Assembly: GCA_049296775.1 (NCBI GenBank) | Contig: JBAQTB010000001.1 | Span: 224,992-288,991 of the forward strand | Source: Patescibacteria group bacterium | GTDB lineage: Bacteria > Patescibacteriota > Patescibacteriia > UBA9934 | Reading direction: 5' to 3' | DNA length: 64,000 bases | Part shown: positions 5,958 to 52,265 of the stretch, in pieces | Numbering within the stretch: the stretch's first letter is position 1 | How the letters are laid out: every line of letters starts with the position of its first letter | Notes under the pieces: model-generated | What the model saw: only the letters and a program-made list of their open reading frames with translations | The model's database searches: none | What the model was told of the DNA's origin: nothing | Translations under genes and position numbers: made by a program

Positions 5958-6431
5958 TTAGGTGCCGTCTGTGCCGGTGGCTGAGATCAACTGATCGAGA
6001 ACAAATGAGCTGATAGCGTAAGCGGACAAGAGGATGACCAAGCCGATAACAGCGGTAATAATGATTTGCTTTGCCTTGGCGACGTTCTTTTCATCACCGC
6101 CAGCGGTCATCCACAAGAAACCAGCGTAAATCACGAGTACCAAGAAAATGATACCGAGCAAACCAAGTAACACGTTAATCAAAAGTCCCAAAGTTTCGTC
6201 CAATTCCTTGTTGCCCAAGCCCGTATTAGACTGAACGGCATCTAGATTATCCGTCAAAGCACCAGCTTCGGTAGCAGCGAAAAGCTGCGGCGCGAACACG
6301 CTAAACGGAGTGGCGATCAGCGCTGCACCTAAGATAAAGTTTTTGAATTTGCTCATAAGGTAATGAAATTTTGATGAGATAAGTATAGCACGTTTTAAAC
6401 CACCCCGCCCCACCTGTTCACAACTTCCCAT
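5958..6431 (-). CDS. TrbC/VirB2-like T4SS-pilin family small membrane protein (paralog 6 of 6)
   Basis: Signal peptide plus two TM helices. Conserved core GLLGIIFLVLVIYAGFLWMTAGGDEKNVAKAKQIIITAVIGLVILLSAYAI. Likely true start is the internal Met (MSKFKNF...), about 6356. Confidence 0.7.
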   Translation of the reverse strand: MGSCEQVGRGGLKRAILISSKFHYLMSKFKNFILGAALIATPFSVFAPQLFAATEAGALTDNLDAVQSNTGLGNKELDETLGLLINVLLGLLGIIFLVLVIYAGFLWMTAGGDEKNVAKAKQIIITAVIGLVILLSAYAISSFVLDQLISATGTDGT

Positions 6432-6435
6432 TCAA

Positions 6436-6870
6436 CTAGGTTGCACCCGTTGCAGTGATGAGCTGACTTAGTACAAAATCCGTAATGGAATAAGCTGCTA
6501 AAGCAATAACCAAACCGATCACAGCCGTAGATAAAGTCCCCTTAGCTTGAGCGATCTTCTTCTCTTCACCCCCAGCCGTCATCCAGGTGATGCCAGCGTA
6601 AATCGTCAACACTAGGAAAATTACTCCTAACAAGCCAATCACGACCTTGATCAGACTGCCAACGAGCTGGGGTAGTTGCTGGCTAATATTATAACCAGCT
6701 CCAATGTCACCAGCAGCAGAGTCTAAGCCACTATCTAAAACTAGTGCAAGGGCTGGATGAGCTAAGCTCATAACCAAGAAACCGACGGCCAGTACGATGA
6801 AAAAACGTTTAAACATATTAATCCTATAATTGCTCGGCGACGCTCCCTGGCGTGGCCGAAAGTGCATCAA
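6436..6870 (-). CDS. TrbC/VirB2-like T4SS-pilin family small membrane protein (paralog 5)
   Basis: Same core W-M-T-A-G-G-x-E-K...A-K...A-V-I-G-L-V-I...A-Y. Probable start is the internal Met (MFKRFFIVLAV), about 6816, which removes the overlap with the upstream paralog. Confidence 0.7.
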   Translation of the reverse strand: MMHFRPRQGASPSNYRINMFKRFFIVLAVGFLVMSLAHPALALVLDSGLDSAAGDIGAGYNISQQLPQLVGSLIKVVIGLLGVIFLVLTIYAGITWMTAGGEEKKIAQAKGTLSTAVIGLVIALAAYSITDFVLSQLITATGAT

Positions 6871-7228
6871 TTACGGTACTTGTAATGACATAAGCTGAAG
6901 CAATAATCACTGCTCCGACCACGGAGGCAACCAGAATATTTTTAGCATTTTCAATACGTTTAGAGTCGCCAGCTGAGGTCATCCACATTAACCCAGCATA
7001 AACTGTTAGCACCAAAAATACCACACCGGTCAGTCCGATTAATGGCTGAATAATAAAACCACCTACAAAAGTAGCAATATTGGTACGGGCCGGGTCTTTG
7101 ACCTGTTCACCATACGCCTGACCTCCGGTCTCCACTAGGCCGGAGCCGTCGACGGATAATTGAGCGGACACTAAGCTAGGCAGGGCTAGGCTGGTCACAA
7201 GGGCTAGAACGGCGAGGAGTTTTCGCAT
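6824..7228 (-). CDS. TrbC/VirB2-like T4SS-pilin family small membrane protein (paralog 4)
   Basis: Signal peptide MRKLLAVLALVTSLALPSLVSA. Core LMWMTSAGDSKRIENAKNILVASVVGAVIIASAYVI. Confidence 0.75.
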   Translation of the reverse strand: MRKLLAVLALVTSLALPSLVSAQLSVDGSGLVETGGQAYGEQVKDPARTNIATFVGGFIIQPLIGLTGVVFLVLTVYAGLMWMTSAGDSKRIENAKNILVASVVGAVIIASAYVITSTVIDALSATPGSVAEQL

Positions 7229-7309
7229 AGCGCAGGGCTCGCATGGGCTAACCTACGGCAGGTAGGCGCAAAAGGATGCGAACCGAGCGGCGTGAGAAAA
7301 CGCGAGTGC

Positions 7310-7762
7310 TTAGATACCTGAGTCGGTCGTGGTCGCGTCAATAAGTGACTGCAGTACAAAGGTCGTAATAGCGTAAGCTGACAAGATGATCGCAACACCA
7401 ATGATACCGGCGATTATCAAACGCTTAGCCTCACCGACTTTCTCATCATTACCACCAGCTGTCATCCACTTGAAACCACCGAACAAGATAATGATAACCG
7501 CTACGATACCTAGGAAACCGAGAGCTACGTTAATGAGCTCACCTAGACTTTCCTTCAAGTCTCGCTGACCAAGACCAGTTCGATCACTGAAAGAGGTCGG
7601 AAGAATATCGCTGACGTCATTAATCTCTTGAGCGCGCACCTGAGCTGCAAATGGCAGAGCCAAGGCTGCGCCAAGCATAACACTCATACCGATTCTTATA
7701 AAAGACTTCACCATACGTTTAGTGCGTAAAGTAATGATTAATATCTGAGAGAAGTATAGCAT
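7310..7762 (-). CDS. TrbC/VirB2-like T4SS-pilin family small membrane protein (paralog 3)
   Basis: Core FKWMTAGGNDEKVGEAKRLIIAGIIGVAIILSAYAI. Probable start at the internal Met (MVKSFIRIG), about 7714. Confidence 0.7.
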   Translation of the reverse strand: MLYFSQILIITLRTKRMVKSFIRIGMSVMLGAALALPFAAQVRAQEINDVSDILPTSFSDRTGLGQRDLKESLGELINVALGFLGIVAVIIILFGGFKWMTAGGNDEKVGEAKRLIIAGIIGVAIILSAYAITTFVLQSLIDATTTDSGI

Positions 7763-7782
7763 AGCTCCAGAGCTGTGCTGAA

Positions 7783-8148
7783 CTATGCCTGACCACCGAT
7801 CGCTGAACCAGTTACCAGACCGTTAATCACGGCGTTCACAAGTACATAAGCAGAGGCGATGAGGGCCAAACCGAGCACTGCCCAAGTGATGACCGTTTTA
7901 CCGCGCTCAATCCGTTTAGATTCTCCAAAAGAGGTGATCCACAAGACACCGCCGTACACAAACATTAGCAAGGCCGCCGAACCAACCACAGATAAAATCG
8001 CCTTAATCACGTTACCCACAATAATACGTGGATCTGAAGTGTCGCCAAGTGGATTGACTAGGACCACCTGTGCGGCGACTAAGCGCGGGGCACACACCAG
8101 GCCAAGCGCGAGTAAGCTCCAGCTAAGACGTTTTAATGACAATTGCAT
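7783..8148 (-). CDS. TrbC/VirB2-like T4SS-pilin family small membrane protein (paralog 2)
   Basis: Signal peptide plus core VLWITSFGESKRIERGKTVITWAVLGLALIASAYVL. Confidence 0.7.
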   Translation of the reverse strand: MQLSLKRLSWSLLALGLVCAPRLVAAQVVLVNPLGDTSDPRIIVGNVIKAILSVVGSAALLMFVYGGVLWITSFGESKRIERGKTVITWAVLGLALIASAYVLVNAVINGLVTGSAIGGQA

Positions 8149-8183
8149 ATAGTTTATAAACCTGAGGGACTAGAGCTGATATT

Positions 8184-8714
8184 TTATTGCTGGGCTTCTT
8201 CAATAGTTTCCTGAATAGTCTGGCTCTGTTCATCACCAGCCAAGGCAGAAATCAAGAAGTTGATTAATGAGTAAGACATAATAATGATAACAAAGCCGAT
8301 AGTCGCGTTAATAACTGTTTCTTTGCCTTTCTCAATTCTATCCGGCTGACCAAGTGAGGTGGTCCACAAAAAGCCGCCGTACACGAACATGAGCAAGACC
8401 AGGGAACCACTCACGCCTAAAATCAAAATGGTGACGTTAACAAAAACCTGCAAAATTTGATTGAGCGTACACTGCCCCGCGAGCTTACAGGCCTCAGCTG
8501 AAGTACAGTTACCGTCAACATCGTCATCGGTGATGTTGGCAAAAATGATGCCGTCAATCAAAATCCTATCAAAACCTGCCTCTTGATCAGTAGTCTTGAT
8601 CCCCGAACCCGAACATTCGGCTGCGTAGGCCACAAAATGACTAGGTACACTAAACGCCCCCAGGAGTACGAGGGCGCTCATGAATCCAACTAAGGCTCTG
8701 ACTAGAGAACGCAT
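8184..8714 (-). CDS. TrbC/VirB2-like T4SS-pilin family small membrane protein (paralog 1, longer Cys-containing ectodomain)
   Basis: Signal peptide, a Cys-rich ~80-aa insert, then the core FLWTTSLGQPDRIEKGKETVINATIGFVIIIMSYSLI. Confidence 0.65.
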   Translation of the reverse strand: MRSLVRALVGFMSALVLLGAFSVPSHFVAYAAECSGSGIKTTDQEAGFDRILIDGIIFANITDDDVDGNCTSAEACKLAGQCTLNQILQVFVNVTILILGVSGSLVLLMFVYGGFLWTTSLGQPDRIEKGKETVINATIGFVIIIMSYSLINFLISALAGDEQSQTIQETIEEAQQ

Positions 8715-8737: not shown

Positions 8738-10123
8738 CTAATAGGTCTGCCGCACAACCTGTGCCGCTCGGTTCACGGTTTCTTCTGGATCATTGCCGGC
8801 CAAGATTTGATCAGCGAAATCATTCAAAGCTTTCTCCATAGCATCTGCATCTCTACCCCGGTACCAGCTTTGAGCAGTTAAAACTTGCTCCGCAAATGGG
8901 CCCAGCTCCTCACTGTTAAGTTGTGAATTGATCAAACCACGCAAAGCTGTGGGCTTACCGGCTCTAGTTAAATATTTGCTGGCCTGTTCAGCAGAAGTAG
9001 CAAATTGCAAGAAATCCCAAGCGTAGTCTGACTCGTCAGAATTATTCGCCACAACTTCCACCCAGTAGTTAGCGTAATTAACCTGCTTACCCCCGGCAAT
9101 CTGTGGAATCTTGCTCACGGCGTAATTCAACTTAGGGGCTGCGGCTAATAAGTAAGGAATGTGGTAACTGTAGCCAAAGAAAAAGGCAGCTTGGCCGTTA
9201 GCAAAGGCTTCAAAGGAACCAGCGAAATCGCTATTCCAGGTGTAAACCTCCTTGGTAGGGTTAGCGAAATCAGTGTAAAAAACGGCAGCATCGATAGCTG
9301 GAAATAAACCTTCTGGCGTACCCTTGGGCACACTAGCAAACGCAACAGAATTACCCTCTGTCATAACCGTACCGTTTTGCAACATGAGCAATGACAGCAA
9401 ATCGACCGAACGTTCTACGTTATCCGTGGTACCAAGAGCCGCTCCAGCTTGGGTAACTTCACCTTCAGCATTCAGCACTGTCAATTTGATCACGTCGTCC
9501 TGGAAGGTCTCCCAATCTGTGGGTGGCTGGGCGATGCCGGCAGAATTCAATAAATCTTTATTGTAAAACAGGACCAAGCTATCAACAGACATGGGTAAAC
9601 CGTAAATGCGGTTAGCCGGCGCCACACTCGGGCTAGCCTGGTATGGCTTAATCACGTCTGAAGCCACCACATCCACAAACTGTTGTTTCAATGCCTTCTC
9701 ACTCAACGTTGGCTGTTCACGGGCTACAAAGATCGTTTCTTTACGCAACGTACCCACCGTTTCCTGGTAAGCCACGGTCACAGCGGCTGGCATGGGCTGC
9801 ATCAAAGTCTGCATTTCACCAAGCTTACTGTTATGCACGGAAAACATGTCCGGTCCCCTGCCCTCCGCAAAAGCACGAATAAGTTCCGTCTCATATTCTT
9901 CCGTGCGAAGTTTGCGGTAATTGATTCTGACGTTTGGATGCAAAGCAGAATACGCAGCAATAATGCTGTCAAAAGTATCTTCACCATCAAACACCCGCCA
10001 GTAATCCAAAACAACCGGTGCGCCGCCAGTGCTGGCCGTCTTTCCGCCCCCAAAACATCCCGCCCCCAGCGTGAGCAGGAGCGTGAAGGCTAAACCGGCA
10101 CCAAACAAGCGCTTAATCACCAT
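8738..10123 (-). CDS. lipoprotein, extracellular solute-binding protein (ABC transporter substrate-binding, family-1/sugar-type)
   Basis: Lipobox LTLGAGC. About 440-aa periplasmic-binding-protein-like fold. Its stop lies 23 nt upstream of the pilin paralog array and its start 1 nt after the galU stop. Confidence 0.55.
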   Translation of the reverse strand: MVIKRLFGAGLAFTLLLTLGAGCFGGGKTASTGGAPVVLDYWRVFDGEDTFDSIIAAYSALHPNVRINYRKLRTEEYETELIRAFAEGRGPDMFSVHNSKLGEMQTLMQPMPAAVTVAYQETVGTLRKETIFVAREQPTLSEKALKQQFVDVVASDVIKPYQASPSVAPANRIYGLPMSVDSLVLFYNKDLLNSAGIAQPPTDWETFQDDVIKLTVLNAEGEVTQAGAALGTTDNVERSVDLLSLLMLQNGTVMTEGNSVAFASVPKGTPEGLFPAIDAAVFYTDFANPTKEVYTWNSDFAGSFEAFANGQAAFFFGYSYHIPYLLAAAPKLNYAVSKIPQIAGGKQVNYANYWVEVVANNSDESDYAWDFLQFATSAEQASKYLTRAGKPTALRGLINSQLNSEELGPFAEQVLTAQSWYRGRDADAMEKALNDFADQILAGNDPEETVNRAAQVVRQTY

Positions 10124-13689: not shown

Positions 13690-14958
13690 ATGAAACTTCT
13701 TGATATCATCAAAATTTCGCAAAAGAACTTGTTGCGCTCTAAATTGCGCACACTGTTAACCGTGGGCGCGGTGTTTATTGGTGCACTGACCTTGTCTTTA
13801 ACCAACGGCCTCGGTAACGGCGTCAAGTCTTACGTCAATGATCAGCTCGGTAACTTGGGCGTGGAACATACGCTCATGGTTCACGTTAAACAGAGTCAAC
13901 AGAATCCGGTCAGCACTGACGTAACCGCCTACAATCCAGATCGAGAAGTGGGTACATTCAATATCGCCCTGTTGAACCAGGAAGATTTTGCTAAAATTGA
14001 ACAGACAGAAGGCGTGATCAAAATTACGCCGGAACGCATGCCGCAATTAGAGTACATTGGGCATGATGCTGAGAAATTTGAAGTGGCGGCTTACCAAAAT
14101 TTGGAAGGGTTGAATTTGACCATTTCAGAAGGTGAACGCGTCCGTGAAGATCTCCCAAACGGGATCACCATCCCTCACAAGTACGTGGAGCCACTCGGTT
14201 TTAGCGACGATCATGACAGCTTGGGTAAAACAGTGACCCTGGCCTACAAAAACGCCGCTCAAGTCACACAAACAGCGGATGTGACGATTATCGGTGTGCA
14301 GGAACCGTCTATCCTTGGCAACACTAACATCGTTATCAGCCAGGCCTTGGCTAAGTTGATCGTGGATGATCAAACTAAGGGTGTACCGGCCCTGGAAGGC
14401 AAGTACATGAATGCCGTGGTCAAGTTCGATGCCAGCTATTCTGATGAAGATATTGCCGCGCTCAAACAGCGCTTTGAAGACCAAGGCTATGCCGCTCAGA
14501 CCATCCAAGATCAGATTGGCATTATCAGCACCGTGATCGACACGATTTTGATTGTGCTAAATGTCTTTGGTGTTATCACGTTGATCGCCGCGGCCTTCGG
14601 TATCGTCAACACTCAACTCATGTCAGTCAATGAACGTACGAGTGAAATTGGCTTAATGAAAGCGCTTGGCGCCAGCCGCAGAAATATCTTCACGATGTTT
14701 TCCATTGAAGCCGCCAGTATCGGTTTCTGGGGAGCGGCACTCGGCACACTCGTCAGTATCGTGATCGGCACCTTAGTGAGTGGTTATGCTACTAACAATT
14801 TCTTGAAAGATTTTGTCGGGTTCCAGTTACTGTCATTTCCGATCGTCTCCACAGCCGGCGTCGTCCTAGCCATTATGTGTTTATCCTTCTTGGCCGGAGC
14901 GCTGCCGTCACTCAAGGCTAGTCGTTTAGACCCAATCAAGGCCTTACGCCACGAATAA
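13690..14958 (+). CDS. ABC transporter permease, FtsX/MacB-like (N-terminal TM, large extracytoplasmic domain, C-terminal 3-TM FtsX domain)
   Basis: 422 aa with MacB-like topology and a C-terminal FtsX-type TM bundle. Cotranscribed with the ATPase. Confidence 0.8.
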   Translation: MKLLDIIKISQKNLLRSKLRTLLTVGAVFIGALTLSLTNGLGNGVKSYVNDQLGNLGVEHTLMVHVKQSQQNPVSTDVTAYNPDREVGTFNIALLNQEDFAKIEQTEGVIKITPERMPQLEYIGHDAEKFEVAAYQNLEGLNLTISEGERVREDLPNGITIPHKYVEPLGFSDDHDSLGKTVTLAYKNAAQVTQTADVTIIGVQEPSILGNTNIVISQALAKLIVDDQTKGVPALEGKYMNAVVKFDASYSDEDIAALKQRFEDQGYAAQTIQDQIGIISTVIDTILIVLNVFGVITLIAAAFGIVNTQLMSVNERTSEIGLMKALGASRRNIFTMFSIEAASIGFWGAALGTLVSIVIGTLVSGYATNNFLKDFVGFQLLSFPIVSTAGVVLAIMCLSFLAGALPSLKASRLDPIKALRHE

Positions 14959-25853: not shown

Positions 25854-26987
25854 TTACTGTCTAATGGGCATGACGATATACACGTATGGTTGACCAGCTT
25901 CTTCTTTAGGCACTACCACACACGGGCTCACGGCATCAATGAGTTTGAGCACGACCTTCTCTGAGCCAATAGCGCCAACGCCGTCGAGTAAGTAGCGGTA
26001 GTTGAGGGTAGCAATGTTATCTTCACCCGTAATTTCCGCATCCACGGCCACGCTGTTCTCGCCCCGGCCAGCATCTGTAGCTGACAGCTCAACTTGGTTA
26101 CCGCCAGCCTTTACTTCCAATCTGACATCGAATAATCCGGCCTTAGAAAACAAGCTCGTCCGCTTCACCGCCTGCATAAACGCAACGCGGTTAACCGTGA
26201 TCTCAGTCTTAGCGTGCTTGGGGATAATCTCTTGATAAGGTGGATAAACTCCATCCAAAGTTCTTGATAGCAATTCGGCACTGCCGTACCTGAACGCCAC
26301 TTGGTTATCCGTCAGTTCAACCTCAAGTTCAGCGGGCATTTCCGCGCTATCTTTAAGGACGCCAATAATCCGTCTGAGCTCGGCCATGGTTCTAGCTGGA
26401 ATAATCACCCGGCGCTCACCCATGACTTCACCCTTCAAACTAATTACGCTCTCACCCAAACGATAACTATCGGTCGCGGCCACCGTTAAGCTCTTGGTCT
26501 CCCCAACAAAATTCATGAAGACACCGGTCAAAACCTGTCTAGCCTCGCTCGTGGCGACCGCAAACAGCGTCCTAGACAACGCAATTTCTAGAGCCGCCAC
26601 TGGAATCATGAACTTTGTGCCCCCAGAGATCTGCGGAACCAACGGAAATTCGCCTGAAGACATGCCGTTAATCTTGGTCTTAGAGGCACCACACACCACC
26701 GACAGGGCCGTGTCGAGTAAATCCAGGTCAACCCGCTCGTCTGGCAATAAGCTGACGTAATCTGAAAATAAACGAGAAGGCAAAGTGTATTCACCTGGTT
26801 GATCGACCTTACCCCGTACCTGACAAGTAACCGTTAAATCTAAATTTGTCGCCGTTAGCCGTACTCCACCTACATCTGCTCTCAATAAAACGTTATTCAG
26901 AATAGGTAGGTTGGCATTCTTAGCACTTAAATGACTGACAACCGCGAGTCCTTGGTGCAGATTCTCTTTCGTACAGGAAAGCTTCAC
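25854..26987 (-). CDS. dnaN: DNA polymerase III beta sliding clamp
   Basis: 377 aa with three-domain clamp architecture. N-terminus MKLSCTKENLHQGLAVVSHLSAKNANLPILNNVLL. Directly downstream of dnaA. Confidence 0.9.
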   Translation of the reverse strand: MKLSCTKENLHQGLAVVSHLSAKNANLPILNNVLLRADVGGVRLTATNLDLTVTCQVRGKVDQPGEYTLPSRLFSDYVSLLPDERVDLDLLDTALSVVCGASKTKINGMSSGEFPLVPQISGGTKFMIPVAALEIALSRTLFAVATSEARQVLTGVFMNFVGETKSLTVAATDSYRLGESVISLKGEVMGERRVIIPARTMAELRRIIGVLKDSAEMPAELEVELTDNQVAFRYGSAELLSRTLDGVYPPYQEIIPKHAKTEITVNRVAFMQAVKRTSLFSKAGLFDVRLEVKAGGNQVELSATDAGRGENSVAVDAEITGEDNIATLNYRYLLDGVGAIGSEKVVLKLIDAVSPCVVVPKEEAGQPYVYIVMPIRQ

Positions 26988-27325
26988 AGGGCGGGAATTT
27001 AATTTTAATTTCTAAAAAGTAACTATAGTAAGGCTGTGGATAGTGTGGACAGATGCGTTGCGAGGCTATTTTACTTGAGATCCGCGGAGTTGGCTTGTGG
27101 ATGAAAACTGCATGGAGGTGTTCATGGGGTGTGGGGAAAAGAACTTCCCAGGTCTGGGTCAGGGTTTACTCGCTGTTTGTCCCCTGGTCTATCCCCCTAC
27201 TTATCCGGGGGTCTGTCCACGGCCTTGTCCACACTTTATACCCGATTCCGGGTTATCCGCTAGGTATCAACACTGTGTACACAGCATGGATAAGTTACTC
27301 GGTTTATACAGAGGTTATCCGCAGT
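26988..27325. promoter_or_regulatory. candidate oriC: dnaA-dnaN intergenic region with at least 8 DnaA-box-like 9-mers and an AT-rich DUE
   Basis: Boxes TGTGGATAG 27035, TGTGGACAG 27044, TGTGGATGA 27096, TTGTCCACA 27225, TTATCCGCT 27253, TGGATAAGT 27287, TTATCCGCA 27314. AT-rich stretch AATTTAATTTTAATTTCTAAAAAGTAACTATAGTAA at 26995-27030. Confidence 0.7.
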
Positions 27326-28810
27326 CTAAGAGCCAACGTACAGACGTTGTTTGATTAATTCCAAGTCTTTTTGGAGCTTTTCATCCGTATCGACCATGCC
27401 GGCGATTTTGGTGTGAGCGTGCATAGCGGTGGTGTGATCGCGGCCGCCGAGTTCTGTGCCAATGGTTGGATATGAACTCTTCATCTCTTCTCTTAGAAGG
27501 TACATGATGATTTGGCGTGGGAAGGCTAAACGCTTTTCTCGACTTTTACCCAGAACTTCTTCCAGACTGATATCGAAATATTCAGCGACCACCTGAATAA
27601 CTTGTTTGGGAGTAACGGTTTTCTTGATATTTTCCGCTTCAAAGCTAGCAACGATGGGCTTGATGCTTTCAAGAGTCGGTTCCATGTTGCGGAATTGGTG
27701 GATCGCCGAAATTTTATTCAGAGCACCTTCTAGCTCACGCACATTAGAAGAGATGCTAGAGGCAATGTACTGGAGGATCTCGCGACTCAAATTAAAGCCA
27801 CGTTCTAGACATTTCTTTTGCAAAATCGCAATCCTGGTTTCTAGGTCTGGTGTACCGACGTCGACTAACATGCCCCACTCCAGGCGTGATTGTAAGCGTT
27901 TTTCCAGTCCCGCAATTGATTTTGGGGGTCGGTCAGAAGAAATCACGATTTGGCGATTTTCTTGATGTAAAGAATTGAAAGTATGGAAGAACTCCTCTTG
28001 AGTCCCCTCTTTACCGGTAATAAATTGAATGTCATCAATGAGTAAAAGGTCGACGTTGCGATAACGATCTTTAAATTCTTTACCTTTTCCAGCTCTAACG
28101 GAATGGATGAAGTCATTCGTGAAGTGTTCACAAGTGACGTACATGATACGAGCGGAAGACCAGCGGCGTTTAATTTCATTAGCAATGGCGTGGAGCAGGT
28201 GAGTTTTACCCAGTCCGACTCCACCGTAAATGAACAAGGGGTTATACGTGCCACCGGGTTGAGCAGCGACGGCTTGGGCCGCAGCGTGAGCGAGTTCATT
28301 TTGCTTACCCACGACAAAAGTTTGGAAAGTGTAATTGGGATTAATTGTAATGTTGCCAGATGGTGGCGCCATTTCTACCGCGCCGGTTTGGACAAAGCCG
28401 TAGTCTTCTTGAGTTGAGCCGCCGGCGTGGGCTGGCATTTTCGATTCAATGACGAGTGGTTGTGGGTCAATGGGTTTAGTTTCTACGCGGCAAGTCAGGC
28501 TGCGGACGGGTTGATCAGTAATGTTTTGTACGGCTTCCACGATATCGCGGAAAAACTTCTTCTCAAGCCAAGACTGCGCTAATGAATTGGGAACGGCAAT
28601 GACGATCTCTCCACTGCGGTATTCGCTAACAAAAGTATTGCGAAACCAGGTGGTGAAATTGGCCTTGCTCATTTTGAGCTCGAGCTGTCCGAGTACGGCT
28701 TCCCAAAGTTCATGAGTGTTCATAGTTGGGGCGAAGAAGCTAATCACCTGGGTGGACCGACAACAAGGTTCGGCGTAGACGATTTGCCACATCATAACCA
28801 ATTTGTCCAC
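27326..28810 (-). CDS. dnaA: chromosomal replication initiator protein DnaA
   Basis: AAA+ Walker A GGVGLGKTHLL, box VII and a C-terminal HTH. Probable true start at MNTHELWEAVL (~28722). Confidence 0.95.
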   Translation of the reverse strand: MDKLVMMWQIVYAEPCCRSTQVISFFAPTMNTHELWEAVLGQLELKMSKANFTTWFRNTFVSEYRSGEIVIAVPNSLAQSWLEKKFFRDIVEAVQNITDQPVRSLTCRVETKPIDPQPLVIESKMPAHAGGSTQEDYGFVQTGAVEMAPPSGNITINPNYTFQTFVVGKQNELAHAAAQAVAAQPGGTYNPLFIYGGVGLGKTHLLHAIANEIKRRWSSARIMYVTCEHFTNDFIHSVRAGKGKEFKDRYRNVDLLLIDDIQFITGKEGTQEEFFHTFNSLHQENRQIVISSDRPPKSIAGLEKRLQSRLEWGMLVDVGTPDLETRIAILQKKCLERGFNLSREILQYIASSISSNVRELEGALNKISAIHQFRNMEPTLESIKPIVASFEAENIKKTVTPKQVIQVVAEYFDISLEEVLGKSREKRLAFPRQIIMYLLREEMKSSYPTIGTELGGRDHTTAMHAHTKIAGMVDTDEKLQKDLELIKQRLYVGS

Positions 28811-29089
28811 AGCCTACAAACAGGCAAAAGTGAATGAATGGTGGATGGAAATGGGGATAAGTAGGCAATATCTGGGGATAAGACCGGAAGTTATGCACAT
28901 TTTCACTGTAAAAGCTGTCAAGAATCGTGGTTTAATAGATGATGTAATTGTGACCCTGTTTAGACGTAGGCCGGGTATGGCCGTCGGCTAAAACTAGTCA
29001 CTAGAGCCCTAAGAGGCTAAAAGTCCGCCCAGTCAGGAGCGAATATTTGACATTTTTCAACGGGAGCCTTATGCTCTCAGCACTTTTCT

Positions 29090-29242: not shown

Positions 29243-29300
29243 AACATTGATAAATCCTGGCAGCAATGCTGGGATTTATTATTTGCAGTACACTATACGT

Positions 29301-29657
29301 ATGTTTTCTGATAAGCACAGATTGCGTCACGATCAAGACATTGCCAGAGTTCTTAAGTCTAAGAAGAGCGTTTTTGATGCTGCCGCTGGACTTAAGTACG
29401 CGGTTAACGAAAAAGCTCACAATCGCGTCACGGTGGTGGTGGGGATTAAGGTAAGTAAGAATGCTACAGACAGAAACAGAGTTAAACGTCAGTATCGGGA
29501 AATCGTCCGGTTATTGATGCCTGACTTGAAGACTGGCTTTGATATTATCATTTTAGTCTCAAAACCAGCTCTGGCTTTAGATTATGAACAAAAGCGGACA
29601 CGCCTTACGCAAGTTTTCAAAAAATCCGGTTTACTCCAAGCTTCAGCAAGAAGTTAG
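29301..29657 (+). CDS. rnpA: ribonuclease P protein component
   Basis: KVSKNATDRNRVKRQYREIVR motif. The ORF track begins at TTG 29247, but the ATG at 29301 (MFSDKHRLRH) fits the family length. Confidence 0.8.
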   Translation: MFSDKHRLRHDQDIARVLKSKKSVFDAAAGLKYAVNEKAHNRVTVVVGIKVSKNATDRNRVKRQYREIVRLLMPDLKTGFDIIILVSKPALALDYEQKRTRLTQVFKKSGLLQASARS

Positions 29658-36959: not shown

Positions 36960-37534
36960 ACAAAAGGGCGATTATAGAGACTGTGAGCTAATTTATGTCG
37001 GTACGATACGGGAATAATGAGAAAAAGAAAAGGGGTACTGAGACGTCAGGCGGTAAAAATATATGCCTGCGTGGCAGAACCCCGGGTAGCTTATGCGTAG
37101 AACTGGTGTCGTTGGGCTTTAAAGTGATGATGAGATCACTGCAAGGCTCAACGCTCCAGATAATACTGAATTAAGCTGTCAAATGACCTGCTTTACCCCG
37201 CTCTGGGTTTGCTCGCTTGCAGATTACATACCTAAACTCAGCAATTGGTCCCGAATGCTTTAAAAAGCTAGTACAGCAGTGAGGTATCTCCCGAAGACGT
37301 TTGTGGGGCTTCGGGAAACTTCCCCTAAGTCATTTCTCGGAATAGGTACCGAGAAAAAGGATAATGAGAAAGAACGATTACCTATAAATAATAGACCCCC
37401 TGAACACTAAATGTAAACACCTATATGACTCAATAAACATAAGGCGTTTATTGGCTTGTGGATAAAATAAACTACTATTGTATTCAGCTGCCTGTGGACA
37501 AGTAAGCTGATTTTGCGGAGTTACACACAGGTTA

Positions 37535-50754: not shown

Positions 50755-50830
50755 GTCCCTATAGTTCAACTGGATAGAACATGGGCGTCCTAAGCCTGGG
50801 ATCTTGGTTCAAGTCCAAGTGGGGGCACCA
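50755..50830 (+). tRNA. tRNA-Arg (anticodon CCT), CCA encoded, two G-U pairs in acceptor stem
   Basis: GTCCCTATAGTTCAACTGGATAGAACATGGGCGTCCTAAGCCTGGGATCTTGGTTCAAGTCCAAGTGGGGGCACCA. Confidence 0.75.
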
Positions 50831-50869
50831 CAAGAAAATGGCTAAAGTTAGCCAAATAACAATGAAAAC

Positions 50870-51215
50870 GTTTCACGTGAAACATTCACTTTCAGAATGT
50901 TCCATATGAAACGTTTTTGTTTTTAGCGATATAATTCCGTACTCACATCGTCTATTCTCGTACCTCATGTTTCACGTGAAGCGTGTAGATCGAGATCCTG
51001 GGTGTCGACCAAGAACTGACGTTGCTAGTCGTGTAGATTGCGATGGCGTCGACAGGACGACCTCTGAATCCAAAGTATCAATTGAGACGCAGATGTTTTA
51101 CGTGAAACATTGCTAATTAAAGTATCGAAATAATAAATTTGAGTGTCCGGGTCGACCGATTGAGAAGTTATCAACTGTTGTGGACTAAAGGGGGATAAGA
51201 TTTGGCCACGTGAAG
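50870..51215. promoter_or_regulatory. three copies of a 12-14-bp palindrome (G)TTTCACGTGAAA(C) plus a fourth half-like site, upstream of the surface-protein operon; TATAAT at 50930-50935
   Basis: GTTTCACGTGAAAC 50870-50883 is a perfect 14-mer. GTTTCACGTGAAG at 50969-50981, GTTTTACGTGAAAC at 51095-51108 and CCACGTGAAG at 51206-51215. Confidence 0.5.
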
Positions 51216-51329
51216 AACTACGAATAATTGTCAACGCTAGTGTAGACAAAGTTACTAACAATCTATACCCAAGTTATCCACAAAGTTATCCCCTTTTTGC
51301 GCTTGTGGGATATTTGCTGACGACATATT

Positions 51330-52265
51330 GTGTTCAGAGGGAATATGTTGAAGTTTTTTAAAGGCCTGGTTGTTTACTTTTCGCTTGGATTAGCGATTTT
51401 TTTGCCTTCCCTCGTAAATGCGGCCATGAGCTCAACGAATTATCGCATCCAGTTTGATTCTGTGGGTGTTGGGGGACTCGATAATCCGTCCTCGGCCTCC
51501 TACGGGCTCAGAGACACTTTGGAGTTTATTCAGGGGATCGGAACTTCAGCATCTTATAGGGTAGATGAGGGTTATAGAGGCGGGATTTACGACCCAATTG
51601 TGCATTTTACGGTGATTGCACAAGATACGGCGTCGCAAGTAGCAGCGACCGCAATTACGAGCACCTCGGTTTCAGTGACGTTGGCTACCGGTTACGTGAC
51701 CGGTGATTATATAGCCGTCATTCAAAATGAGGGGCTTAGTCAAATAGCGGCGATTGGTAGGATTACGAGTGTTGCGGGCGCTACCCTGAATATCGATTTC
51801 TTTACTGACGGCGGCACCTTTCCGGTGATCGATAGTGTCAATGATTATGTGTATGAGCTGACGGACACGGGTATCCCACTTAGTTCTTTAACACCGAGTA
51901 CGGCCCAGACCGGTATTTTGGCTTGGGATGTTGATGCTAGTGTGCCGGAAGGCTACAGCGTATATGTGTTTGAAGATCATGATCTGTGGGTTAGCTCTGG
52001 TACGGCGATTAATGATGTCGAGGACGGCGCTGTGACCACGAGTAATGAGGAGTATGGCGGCAGATCATCGGATACGACCTTGTCAGGCTCAACATTTGAT
52101 ACTGCGGATACGTCTTTCACGACTAGCTTACAGCAAGTAGCCAGTCGGAATGTTTCAACTTTGAAATCACGGGATTTTTTGACGCTGAAAGTGGCCGCCG
52201 CGGAGACCACGGTGGACGGCGCTTACTCGCATACGCTGACAGTAGTGTTCGTGGGTGATTATTAG
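51330..52265 (+). CDS. secreted protein with N-terminal S-x-N-Y-R-[IL]..V-G-V-G-G...S-S-A-S-Y-G-L motif domain, Thr/Ser-rich
   Basis: Signal peptide LKFFKGLVVYFSLGLAIFLPSLVNA. First gene of a same-strand cluster with 0-10-nt gaps and overlaps. Confidence 0.55.
   Translation: MFRGNMLKFFKGLVVYFSLGLAIFLPSLVNAAMSSTNYRIQFDSVGVGGLDNPSSASYGLRDTLEFIQGIGTSASYRVDEGYRGGIYDPIVHFTVIAQDTASQVAATAITSTSVSVTLATGYVTGDYIAVIQNEGLSQIAAIGRITSVAGATLNIDFFTDGGTFPVIDSVNDYVYELTDTGIPLSSLTPSTAQTGILAWDVDASVPEGYSVYVFEDHDLWVSSGTAINDVEDGAVTTSNEEYGGRSSDTTLSGSTFDTADTSFTTSLQQVASRNVSTLKSRDFLTLKVAAAETTVDGAYSHTLTVVFVGDY

Follow-up and report, generated by a model that had tools for sequence, protein, structure and literature searches.

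The window, which is the whole stretch of Patescibacteria DNA analysed here (64,000 nt), contains an origin of replication that is marked by dnaN, dnaA, eight near-consensus DnaA boxes flanking dnaA (27035–27323 and 28803–28899; two of them read TGGGGATAA) and a change in the sign of the GC skew at around 27.0 kb, with a cumulative curve that forms a clean V (Table 1). The rnpA gene is found at 29247–29657. On the right arm, around 22 kb from oriC, lies an array of short palindromes, which is preceded by polA, holA, rpsT, rmuC and tRNA-Arg(CCT) and followed by a four-gene operon. The first two genes of the operon encode proteins of 306 aa and 292 aa that have no Pfam matches; the operon also encodes an 818-aa protein, in which CarboxypepD_reg domains are combined with a Pro-rich linker, and its fourth frame, which is still open at the end of the window, comprises at least 2,813 aa. 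The sequence-only reading, an earlier annotation made from the letters of this DNA, had labelled it an adhesin operon; we looked for an adhesin domain and found none.

Table 1 Coordinates of the origin, the palindrome array and the neighbouring elements (window positions)
Feature	Position	Strand	Description
Candidate additional parS	13877–13892		TGGTTCACGTTAAACA, 14/16; core CACGTT, not CACGTG
Origin region	25854–28899		dnaN, dnaA, DnaA boxes, GC-skew switch
dnaN	25854–26987	−	
dnaA	27326–28810	−	
tRNA-Arg(CCT)	50755–50830	+	Conserved 5′ boundary of the spacer with the putative parS sites
Long hairpin	50857–50925	+	Site 1 and degenerate site, then T run TTTTTGTTTTT
Putative parS site 1	50869–50884		CGTTTCACGTGAAACA, 15/16 to consensus; encloses perfect 14-bp palindrome
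Degenerate parS-like site	50898–50913		TGTTCCATATGAAACG; core CACGTG changed to CATATG
Putative parS site 2	50968–50983		TGTTTCACGTGAAGCG, 14/16
Putative parS site 3	51094–51109		TGTTTTACGTGAAACA, 15/16
Weak half-site (fourth copy)	51202–51217		TTGGCCACGTGAAGAA; CAYGTG element at equal position in relatives
DnaA-box cluster	51168–51294		TTATCAACT 51168, TGTGGACTA 51179, GGGGGATAA 51190, TTATCCACA 51274, TTATCCCCT 51286
Conserved palindrome	51228–51249		TTGTCAAC-N6-GTAGACAA; TGTCnAC-N6-GTnGACA
Promoter-like block	51303–51339	+	TTGTGG (51303), 17 nt, TATTGT (51326); from alignments

Four copies of the palindrome had been reported in the spacer between tRNA-Arg(CCT) and the first operon gene (start codon ATG 51345 or GTG 51330), and all four are present there: GTTTCACGTGAAAC at 50870–50883, GTTTCACGTGAAG at 50969–50981, GTTTTACGTGAAAC at 51095–51108 and CCACGTGAAG at 51206–51215, with centre-to-centre spacings of 99, 126 and 108 bp. 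The 14-bp palindrome at 50870 is indeed perfect and is contained in a longer, 16-bp site (site 1). The fourth copy does begin at 51206, but it is only a weak half-site, in which five of the 14 positions that the 16-mer specifies are mismatched, and its membership of the array is uncertain; the same position in one relative (L007) reads TTTTCCACGTGGAAAA. A degenerate fifth copy, GTTCCATATGAAAC at 50899, lies 29 bp past the first and forms with site 1 an inverted repeat whose 31-nt arms are 81% complementary. This copy is probably a decayed site, its distance from site 1 matching the 29–34-bp gap that separates sites 1 and 2 in relatives.

The motif is enriched well beyond chance in this spacer. 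With up to three mismatches allowed, the 16-mer TGTTTCACGTGAAACA has four matches in the 64-kb window, against 0.37 expected, and none of 100 shuffled sequences reached four; three of the four matches fall within 241 bp, in the array. The shorter motif TTCACGTGAA, with up to one mismatch, is matched seven times in the window (2.7 expected), and ACGTGAA occurs on the plus strand four times within 334 bp, out of seven occurrences in 64 kb. The 10 kb that adjoin the window on its left contain no parS-like 16-mer. Inside a gene for an FtsX-type permease, around 14 kb to the left of oriC and thus on the opposite side from the array, lies one additional candidate, TGGTTCACGTTAAACA; the calculated chance expectation for a match this good is around 0.02 per window, and judging by its sequence it is a possible second centromere site.

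We aligned the leader with those of relatives in which gene 1 is 59–73% identical (L003, L007, L009, L010, L012 and L015), and this extended the conserved palindrome to 16–18 bp, with the consensus aTGTTTCACGTGAAACAt. We compared 44 half-sites drawn from seven genomes: every one of them has G2 and T4 (44/44 each), and T3, C6, A7 and C8 are nearly invariant, whereas position 5 is free (T in 30, C in 9, A in 2 and G in 3). The consensus is that of parS, published as TGTTTCAC–GTGAAACA (10.1101/724823), with TGTTNCACGTGAAACA as the form given for Bacillus subtilis (PMC7022226). The variable position 5/12 coincides with the N of the Bacillus consensus, so the degeneracy, too, fits parS. The three good sites of the window match the consensus at 15, 14 and 15 of 16 positions, and perfect copies of TGTTTCACGTGAAACA occur in relatives, up to six of them in a single locus (L060). 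Site 1 corresponds in position to the invariant first site of the aligned relatives, TGTTTCACGTGGAACA, the other strand of which carries the half-site GTTCCAC, a variant that has also been reported to be bound by ParB (PMC7022226). Variation among the sites is one-sided and uncompensated, and the CACGTG centre is the best conserved part, a pattern that fits a degenerate protein site rather than an RNA helix. It is almost certain that a dimeric helix-turn-helix protein binds the palindromes and acts cooperatively over the array.

We scanned metagenomes with the gene-1 alignment and obtained 80 further loci, at 38–69% identity. The gene order polA-holA-rpsT-rmuC (minus strand)-tRNA-Arg(CCT)-operon is kept throughout, down to around 40% identity of gene 1. 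In 75 distinct loci, sites with no more than two mismatches over the 14 specified positions of the 16-mer were counted as parS-like. Up to 2 kb upstream of gene 1, these loci contain 103 such sites, against 0.37 expected; in their remaining 696 kb, there are only two, against 2.2 expected. Among the loci with full upstream sequence, 38 of 51 (75%) carry one to six sites and the other 13 carry none, despite having the same operon. Two loci without parS-like sites (L002 and L014) retain the operon, the tRNA genes and the leader elements proximal to gene 1.

The arrangement of the sites is fluid. Most of those in relatives lie between tRNA-Arg and a tRNA-Ala gene, and some lie beyond tRNA-Ala; most of the relatives' sites are thus set apart from the operon by a tRNA gene as well as by a terminator-like hairpin that has a T run. 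In L060, two perfect sites are located between the two tRNA genes and four follow the T-run terminator-like hairpin 3′ of tRNA-Ala. The intervening gene is tRNA-Ala(CGC) in L007, L012, L015, L089 and others, and has a UGC anticodon in L060; it has decayed to a pseudogene in L003 (around 9618–9680) and L009 (around 1792–1851). In the window, tRNA-Ala(CGC) is nearly unrecognisable, with a faint similarity (GATTGCGATGGCGTCGAC) left at around 50985–51075, and its decay explains why the spacing here is unlike that in relatives. The regular spacing of around 100–125 bp that had been read from the window is not kept: the first four sites are 29–34 bp apart in the closest relatives, and distances range from 29 to more than 280 bp across all of them. 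Because the spacing differs among genomes, helical phasing is ruled out as its basis. The counterpart of site 3 lies around 250–300 bp before the start of the operon in many relatives.

Two further elements were seen in this part of the spacer. Directly 5′ of the first putative parS site, at 50839–50854, is a palindrome, TGGCTAAAGTTAGCCA, that is conserved in the closer relatives, has a similar counterpart in L002 and scores as a terminator-like hairpin on the minus strand. Several relatives (L003, at around 9228–9360, and L007, L009 and L012) have, right after tRNA-Arg, a conserved element of around 130 nt, the long termini of which are inverted (GAAACTTATTTAAA...TTTAAATAAGTTTC). The window lacks this element, which may represent either a small RNA or a miniature mobile element.

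In the sequence available, then, we see a 16-bp inverted repeat that tolerates variation at position 5/12, is proximal to the origin and occurs as a few sites. Given the canonical sequence with its canonical degeneracy, the origin-proximal clustering, the rarity elsewhere and the conservation of the sites as DNA without being locked to a promoter, we put at about 0.85 the probability that the palindromes are chromosomal parS sites; that is, 16-bp centromere-like TGTTTCACGTGAAACA elements at which dimers of ParB (Spo0J) would nucleate. The cluster would thus belong to a well-known kind of site that is undescribed in Patescibacteria in the literature we searched, which held nothing on either ParB or parS in this phylum.

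The sequence-only reading had instead taken the palindromes as operators, at which a dedicated dimeric transcription factor would control the surface-protein operon by binding cooperatively or by looping the DNA. The sites are indeed palindromic and clustered, they lie always upstream of one operon across deep divergence, one of them is found around 200–300 bp before the start codon in many relatives, and, for a genome this compact, the conserved leader is of unusual length. Nevertheless, the sequence is identical to canonical parS down to the tolerated degeneracy, and in relatives a tRNA-Ala gene and a terminator-like hairpin intervene between most of the sites and the operon. Loci have anywhere from zero to six sites, which are between 29 and more than 280 bp apart and hold no fixed position, 13 of 51 loci have the operon without any site, no regulator gene is conserved nearby, and it is the DnaA boxes and a TGTCnAC palindrome that are more strictly conserved beside the promoter. 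We therefore consider a dedicated operator array unlikely. What stands of that proposal is an array for a dimeric DNA-binding protein; what does not is its assignment as an operator for this operon, the sequence being that of canonical parS. The linkage to one region does not discriminate here: a regulatory role predicts it too, and owing to the conserved synteny, parS in an operon leader and parS in one long origin-proximal intergenic region are not separable by it.

Control of the operon probably lies with proximal elements of its own. The 200 bp before the start codon are conserved independently of parS. These candidate elements are the DnaA boxes, the TGTCnAC palindrome and the TTGTGG-17-TATTGT block. 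The DnaA-box cluster consists of one perfect box and four with two mismatches each, two of the box-like 9-mers (51179–51198) being in reverse orientation; the TTATCCCC variant among the mismatched boxes is also used beside dnaA. In the 80 relatives, the 400-bp segments upstream of gene 1, which add up to 30 kb, contain 97 copies of the perfect box TTATCCACA, whereas the other 809 kb contain 8, so that its density differs 325-fold; one lineage (L066, L069 (6140–6430) and L070) has ten perfect boxes in 364 bp. We ruled out that the leader is oriC, an option considered because of TTATCCACA: there is no GC-skew switch at 51 kb or at the corresponding place in relatives, including L070, and oriC is located at dnaA. 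Rather, the boxes may belong to a DnaA-regulated promoter or to a datA/DBC-like titration locus beside the putative centromere. The only other perfect DnaA box in the window, TGTGGATAA, is accompanied by a one-mismatch box, TGTGGACAA, 36 bp away (37457–37501), in the intergenic region 36960–37534.

The TGTCnAC palindrome, which follows the pattern TGTCnAn-N4-8-nTnGACA across the family, is found in relatives at 39 places upstream of gene 1 and at four elsewhere, and it is retained even in L002 and L014, which lack parS-like sites. From its sequence and conservation, it is a likelier candidate for the operator of the operon than the putative parS sites are. Immediately before the start codon, the block CTGACGACATATTGTGTTCAGAG (51317–51339) is conserved, and its part CTGACGAC–TATTGTGTTCA (51317–51336) is invariant but for one position in six aligned sequences. 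TTGTGG-17-TATTGT can be read as a putative promoter, in which case the leader would be around 9 nt long including the Shine–Dalgarno sequence. A TATAAT that had been pointed out earlier is present at 50930–50935, with ATGAAA 18 nt upstream; we rejected it as the operon promoter because it is not conserved (relatives have a parS-like site there) and because promoter-like matches are not above the expectation from shuffled sequences.

Could the palindromes instead act at the RNA level, as hairpins in a tRNA or leader transcript that serve as terminators or processing signals? In favour of this, the long hairpin formed by site 1 and the degenerate site is very stable (predicted energy −32.6 kcal/mol, z = −6.2), lies right after tRNA-Arg and is followed by a T run. 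The hairpin is A+T-rich and was not called by a terminator scan, and its T run is not conserved in relatives; a hairpin also arises automatically from two adjacent palindromic copies. The one-sided variation argues against an RNA helix, as does the best conserved segment, CACGTG, which would form the loop, and the sites fall in at least two different transcription units. Searching Rfam (E-value ≤ 1) for a known RNA family returned only tRNA and meaningless microRNA-like matches from the hairpin. We regard RNA-level elements as very improbable, although in the genome of the window the 50857–50925 hairpin may double as the tRNA-Arg terminator. Least probable of all is that the sites are what is left of a mobile element, such as a plasmid or phage partition site integrated beside a tRNA gene: the tRNA-adjacent location is typical of integration sites and relatives have the ~130-nt element with inverted termini after tRNA-Arg, but neither an integrase gene nor any other gene of a mobile element is found next to the sites, synteny of the region (polA-holA-rpsT-rmuC-tRNA-operon) holds to around 40% gene-1 identity and the sequence is that of the chromosomal parS consensus.

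In ParABS systems, ParB nucleates at parS and forms CTP-dependent sliding clamps, which leads to SMC loading and ParA-driven segregation. If the palindromes are parS, established ParABS biology predicts that ParB dimers would bind each 16-mer through their helix-turn-helix domains, take up CTP and form closed clamps, which would slide onto the flanking DNA. The resulting partition complex would load SMC and, if ParA is present, would be pulled apart after replication. Several sites within around 250 bp would raise the local rate of ParB loading, and any effect on the operon would be secondary, through spreading. A cognate ParB (PF02195 plus HTH_ParB) is assumed to be encoded in the same genome. 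No ParB was found in the window, in the adjoining 10 kb on its left or within around 10 kb of the site cluster in any of 88 related loci, either by Pfam scans, which covered 40 window ORFs as well as the giant gene's open end, or by a ParB HMM, which was applied to all six-frame ORFs from 95 loci and the window; a six-frame search for the GERRxRA motif was negative too. A consensus ParB query against a protein database retrieved Firmicutes-type proteins only.

With the chromosomal parS sites of B. subtilis, at which Spo0J binds TGTTNCACGTGAAACA, the array shares the 16-bp palindrome, the variable position 5/12, the origin-proximal location, the presence of several copies and the half-site-like variants. 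Unlike in typical parS loci, the cluster is unusually tight (three to five sites in around 250–350 bp here, and six perfect sites in around 650 bp in L060), and the sites lie in a tRNA spacer and not near or inside parB, with no parB within around 10 kb in relatives. The parS1–4 sites of Pseudomonas aeruginosa also form an origin-proximal cluster, some of them in promoter-bearing intergenic DNA, and by analogy, silencing by ParB is plausible at the present locus. There, the intergenic sites parS3 and parS4 repress neighbouring genes (PMC7022226). At the present locus, by contrast, the nearest good site is around 250 bp from the start codon with other conserved elements in between. By this analogy, ParB spreading may have a side effect on expression of the operon.

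In Caulobacter crescentus, the locus that combines parS with DnaA boxes lies around 8 kb from oriC. Similarly, the locus described here brings together putative parS sites and DnaA boxes outside oriC, at a distance of around 22 kb. The Caulobacter boxes are in the parS region, and binding of DnaA to them enables segregation, according to the account of Mera et al. 2014 that is given in PMC6399470. Here, in contrast, the DnaA boxes adjoin the operon promoter and may simply regulate transcription. The sda promoter of B. subtilis is regulated by DnaA in this way, and by analogy, a DnaA-regulated promoter of that kind and a Caulobacter-like role in segregation are equally good accounts of the boxes.

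These comparisons allow a broader and more speculative picture, in which the region between rmuC and the operon is a conserved cell-cycle hub, with a centromere and a DnaA-box cluster placed deliberately at the promoter of the surface-protein operon. The linkage of parS-like sites to this leader persists to around 40% gene-1 identity and perfect DnaA boxes are 325-fold enriched in it, but conserved synteny by itself could give the same pattern, and we think it doubtful that such a hub exists. If it did, ParB spreading and occupancy by DnaA-ATP would gate production of the surface or attachment apparatus according to the state of replication and segregation; alternatively or additionally, segregation would be licensed by DnaA bound at the centromere, much as happens in Caulobacter. 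In either case, the parS-like array, the DnaA boxes and the palindrome are conserved together before a giant surface-protein operon, which makes a possible link between the cell cycle and the expression of surface proteins directly testable in these episymbiotic bacteria.

As an element, parS is an ordinary and well-understood type of site. The value of recognising it here is that it corrects the tempting reading of a centromere as an operator array, and that it would provide a concrete centromere for an uncultivated and poorly understood phylum; the 16-mer could serve as a landmark for orienting and checking Patescibacteria assemblies and for predicting dependence on ParB.

The Noc-binding sites (NBS) of Firmicutes are dispersed along the chromosome, but not near the terminus. 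They are 16-bp palindromes, as are the sites described here, and are bound by a member of the ParB family, but they read TATTTCCCGGGAAATA, with a CCCGGG core (10.1101/724823). We ruled out this identity because all of the good sites have a CACGTG core; they also have G/C rather than A/T at positions 2/15, and they are clustered. As a separate observation, the parS-like sites of L069 (5990–6020 and 6125–6145), which belongs to the lineage with ten DnaA boxes, read ATTTCACGTGAAAT and have A/T at positions 2/15, and are thus intermediate between parS and the Firmicutes Noc site. Elsewhere in the window, six tandem small paralogous genes (121–176 aa) occupy 5958–8714 on the minus strand; the matching Logan contig has them annotated as T4SS_pilin (PF18895).
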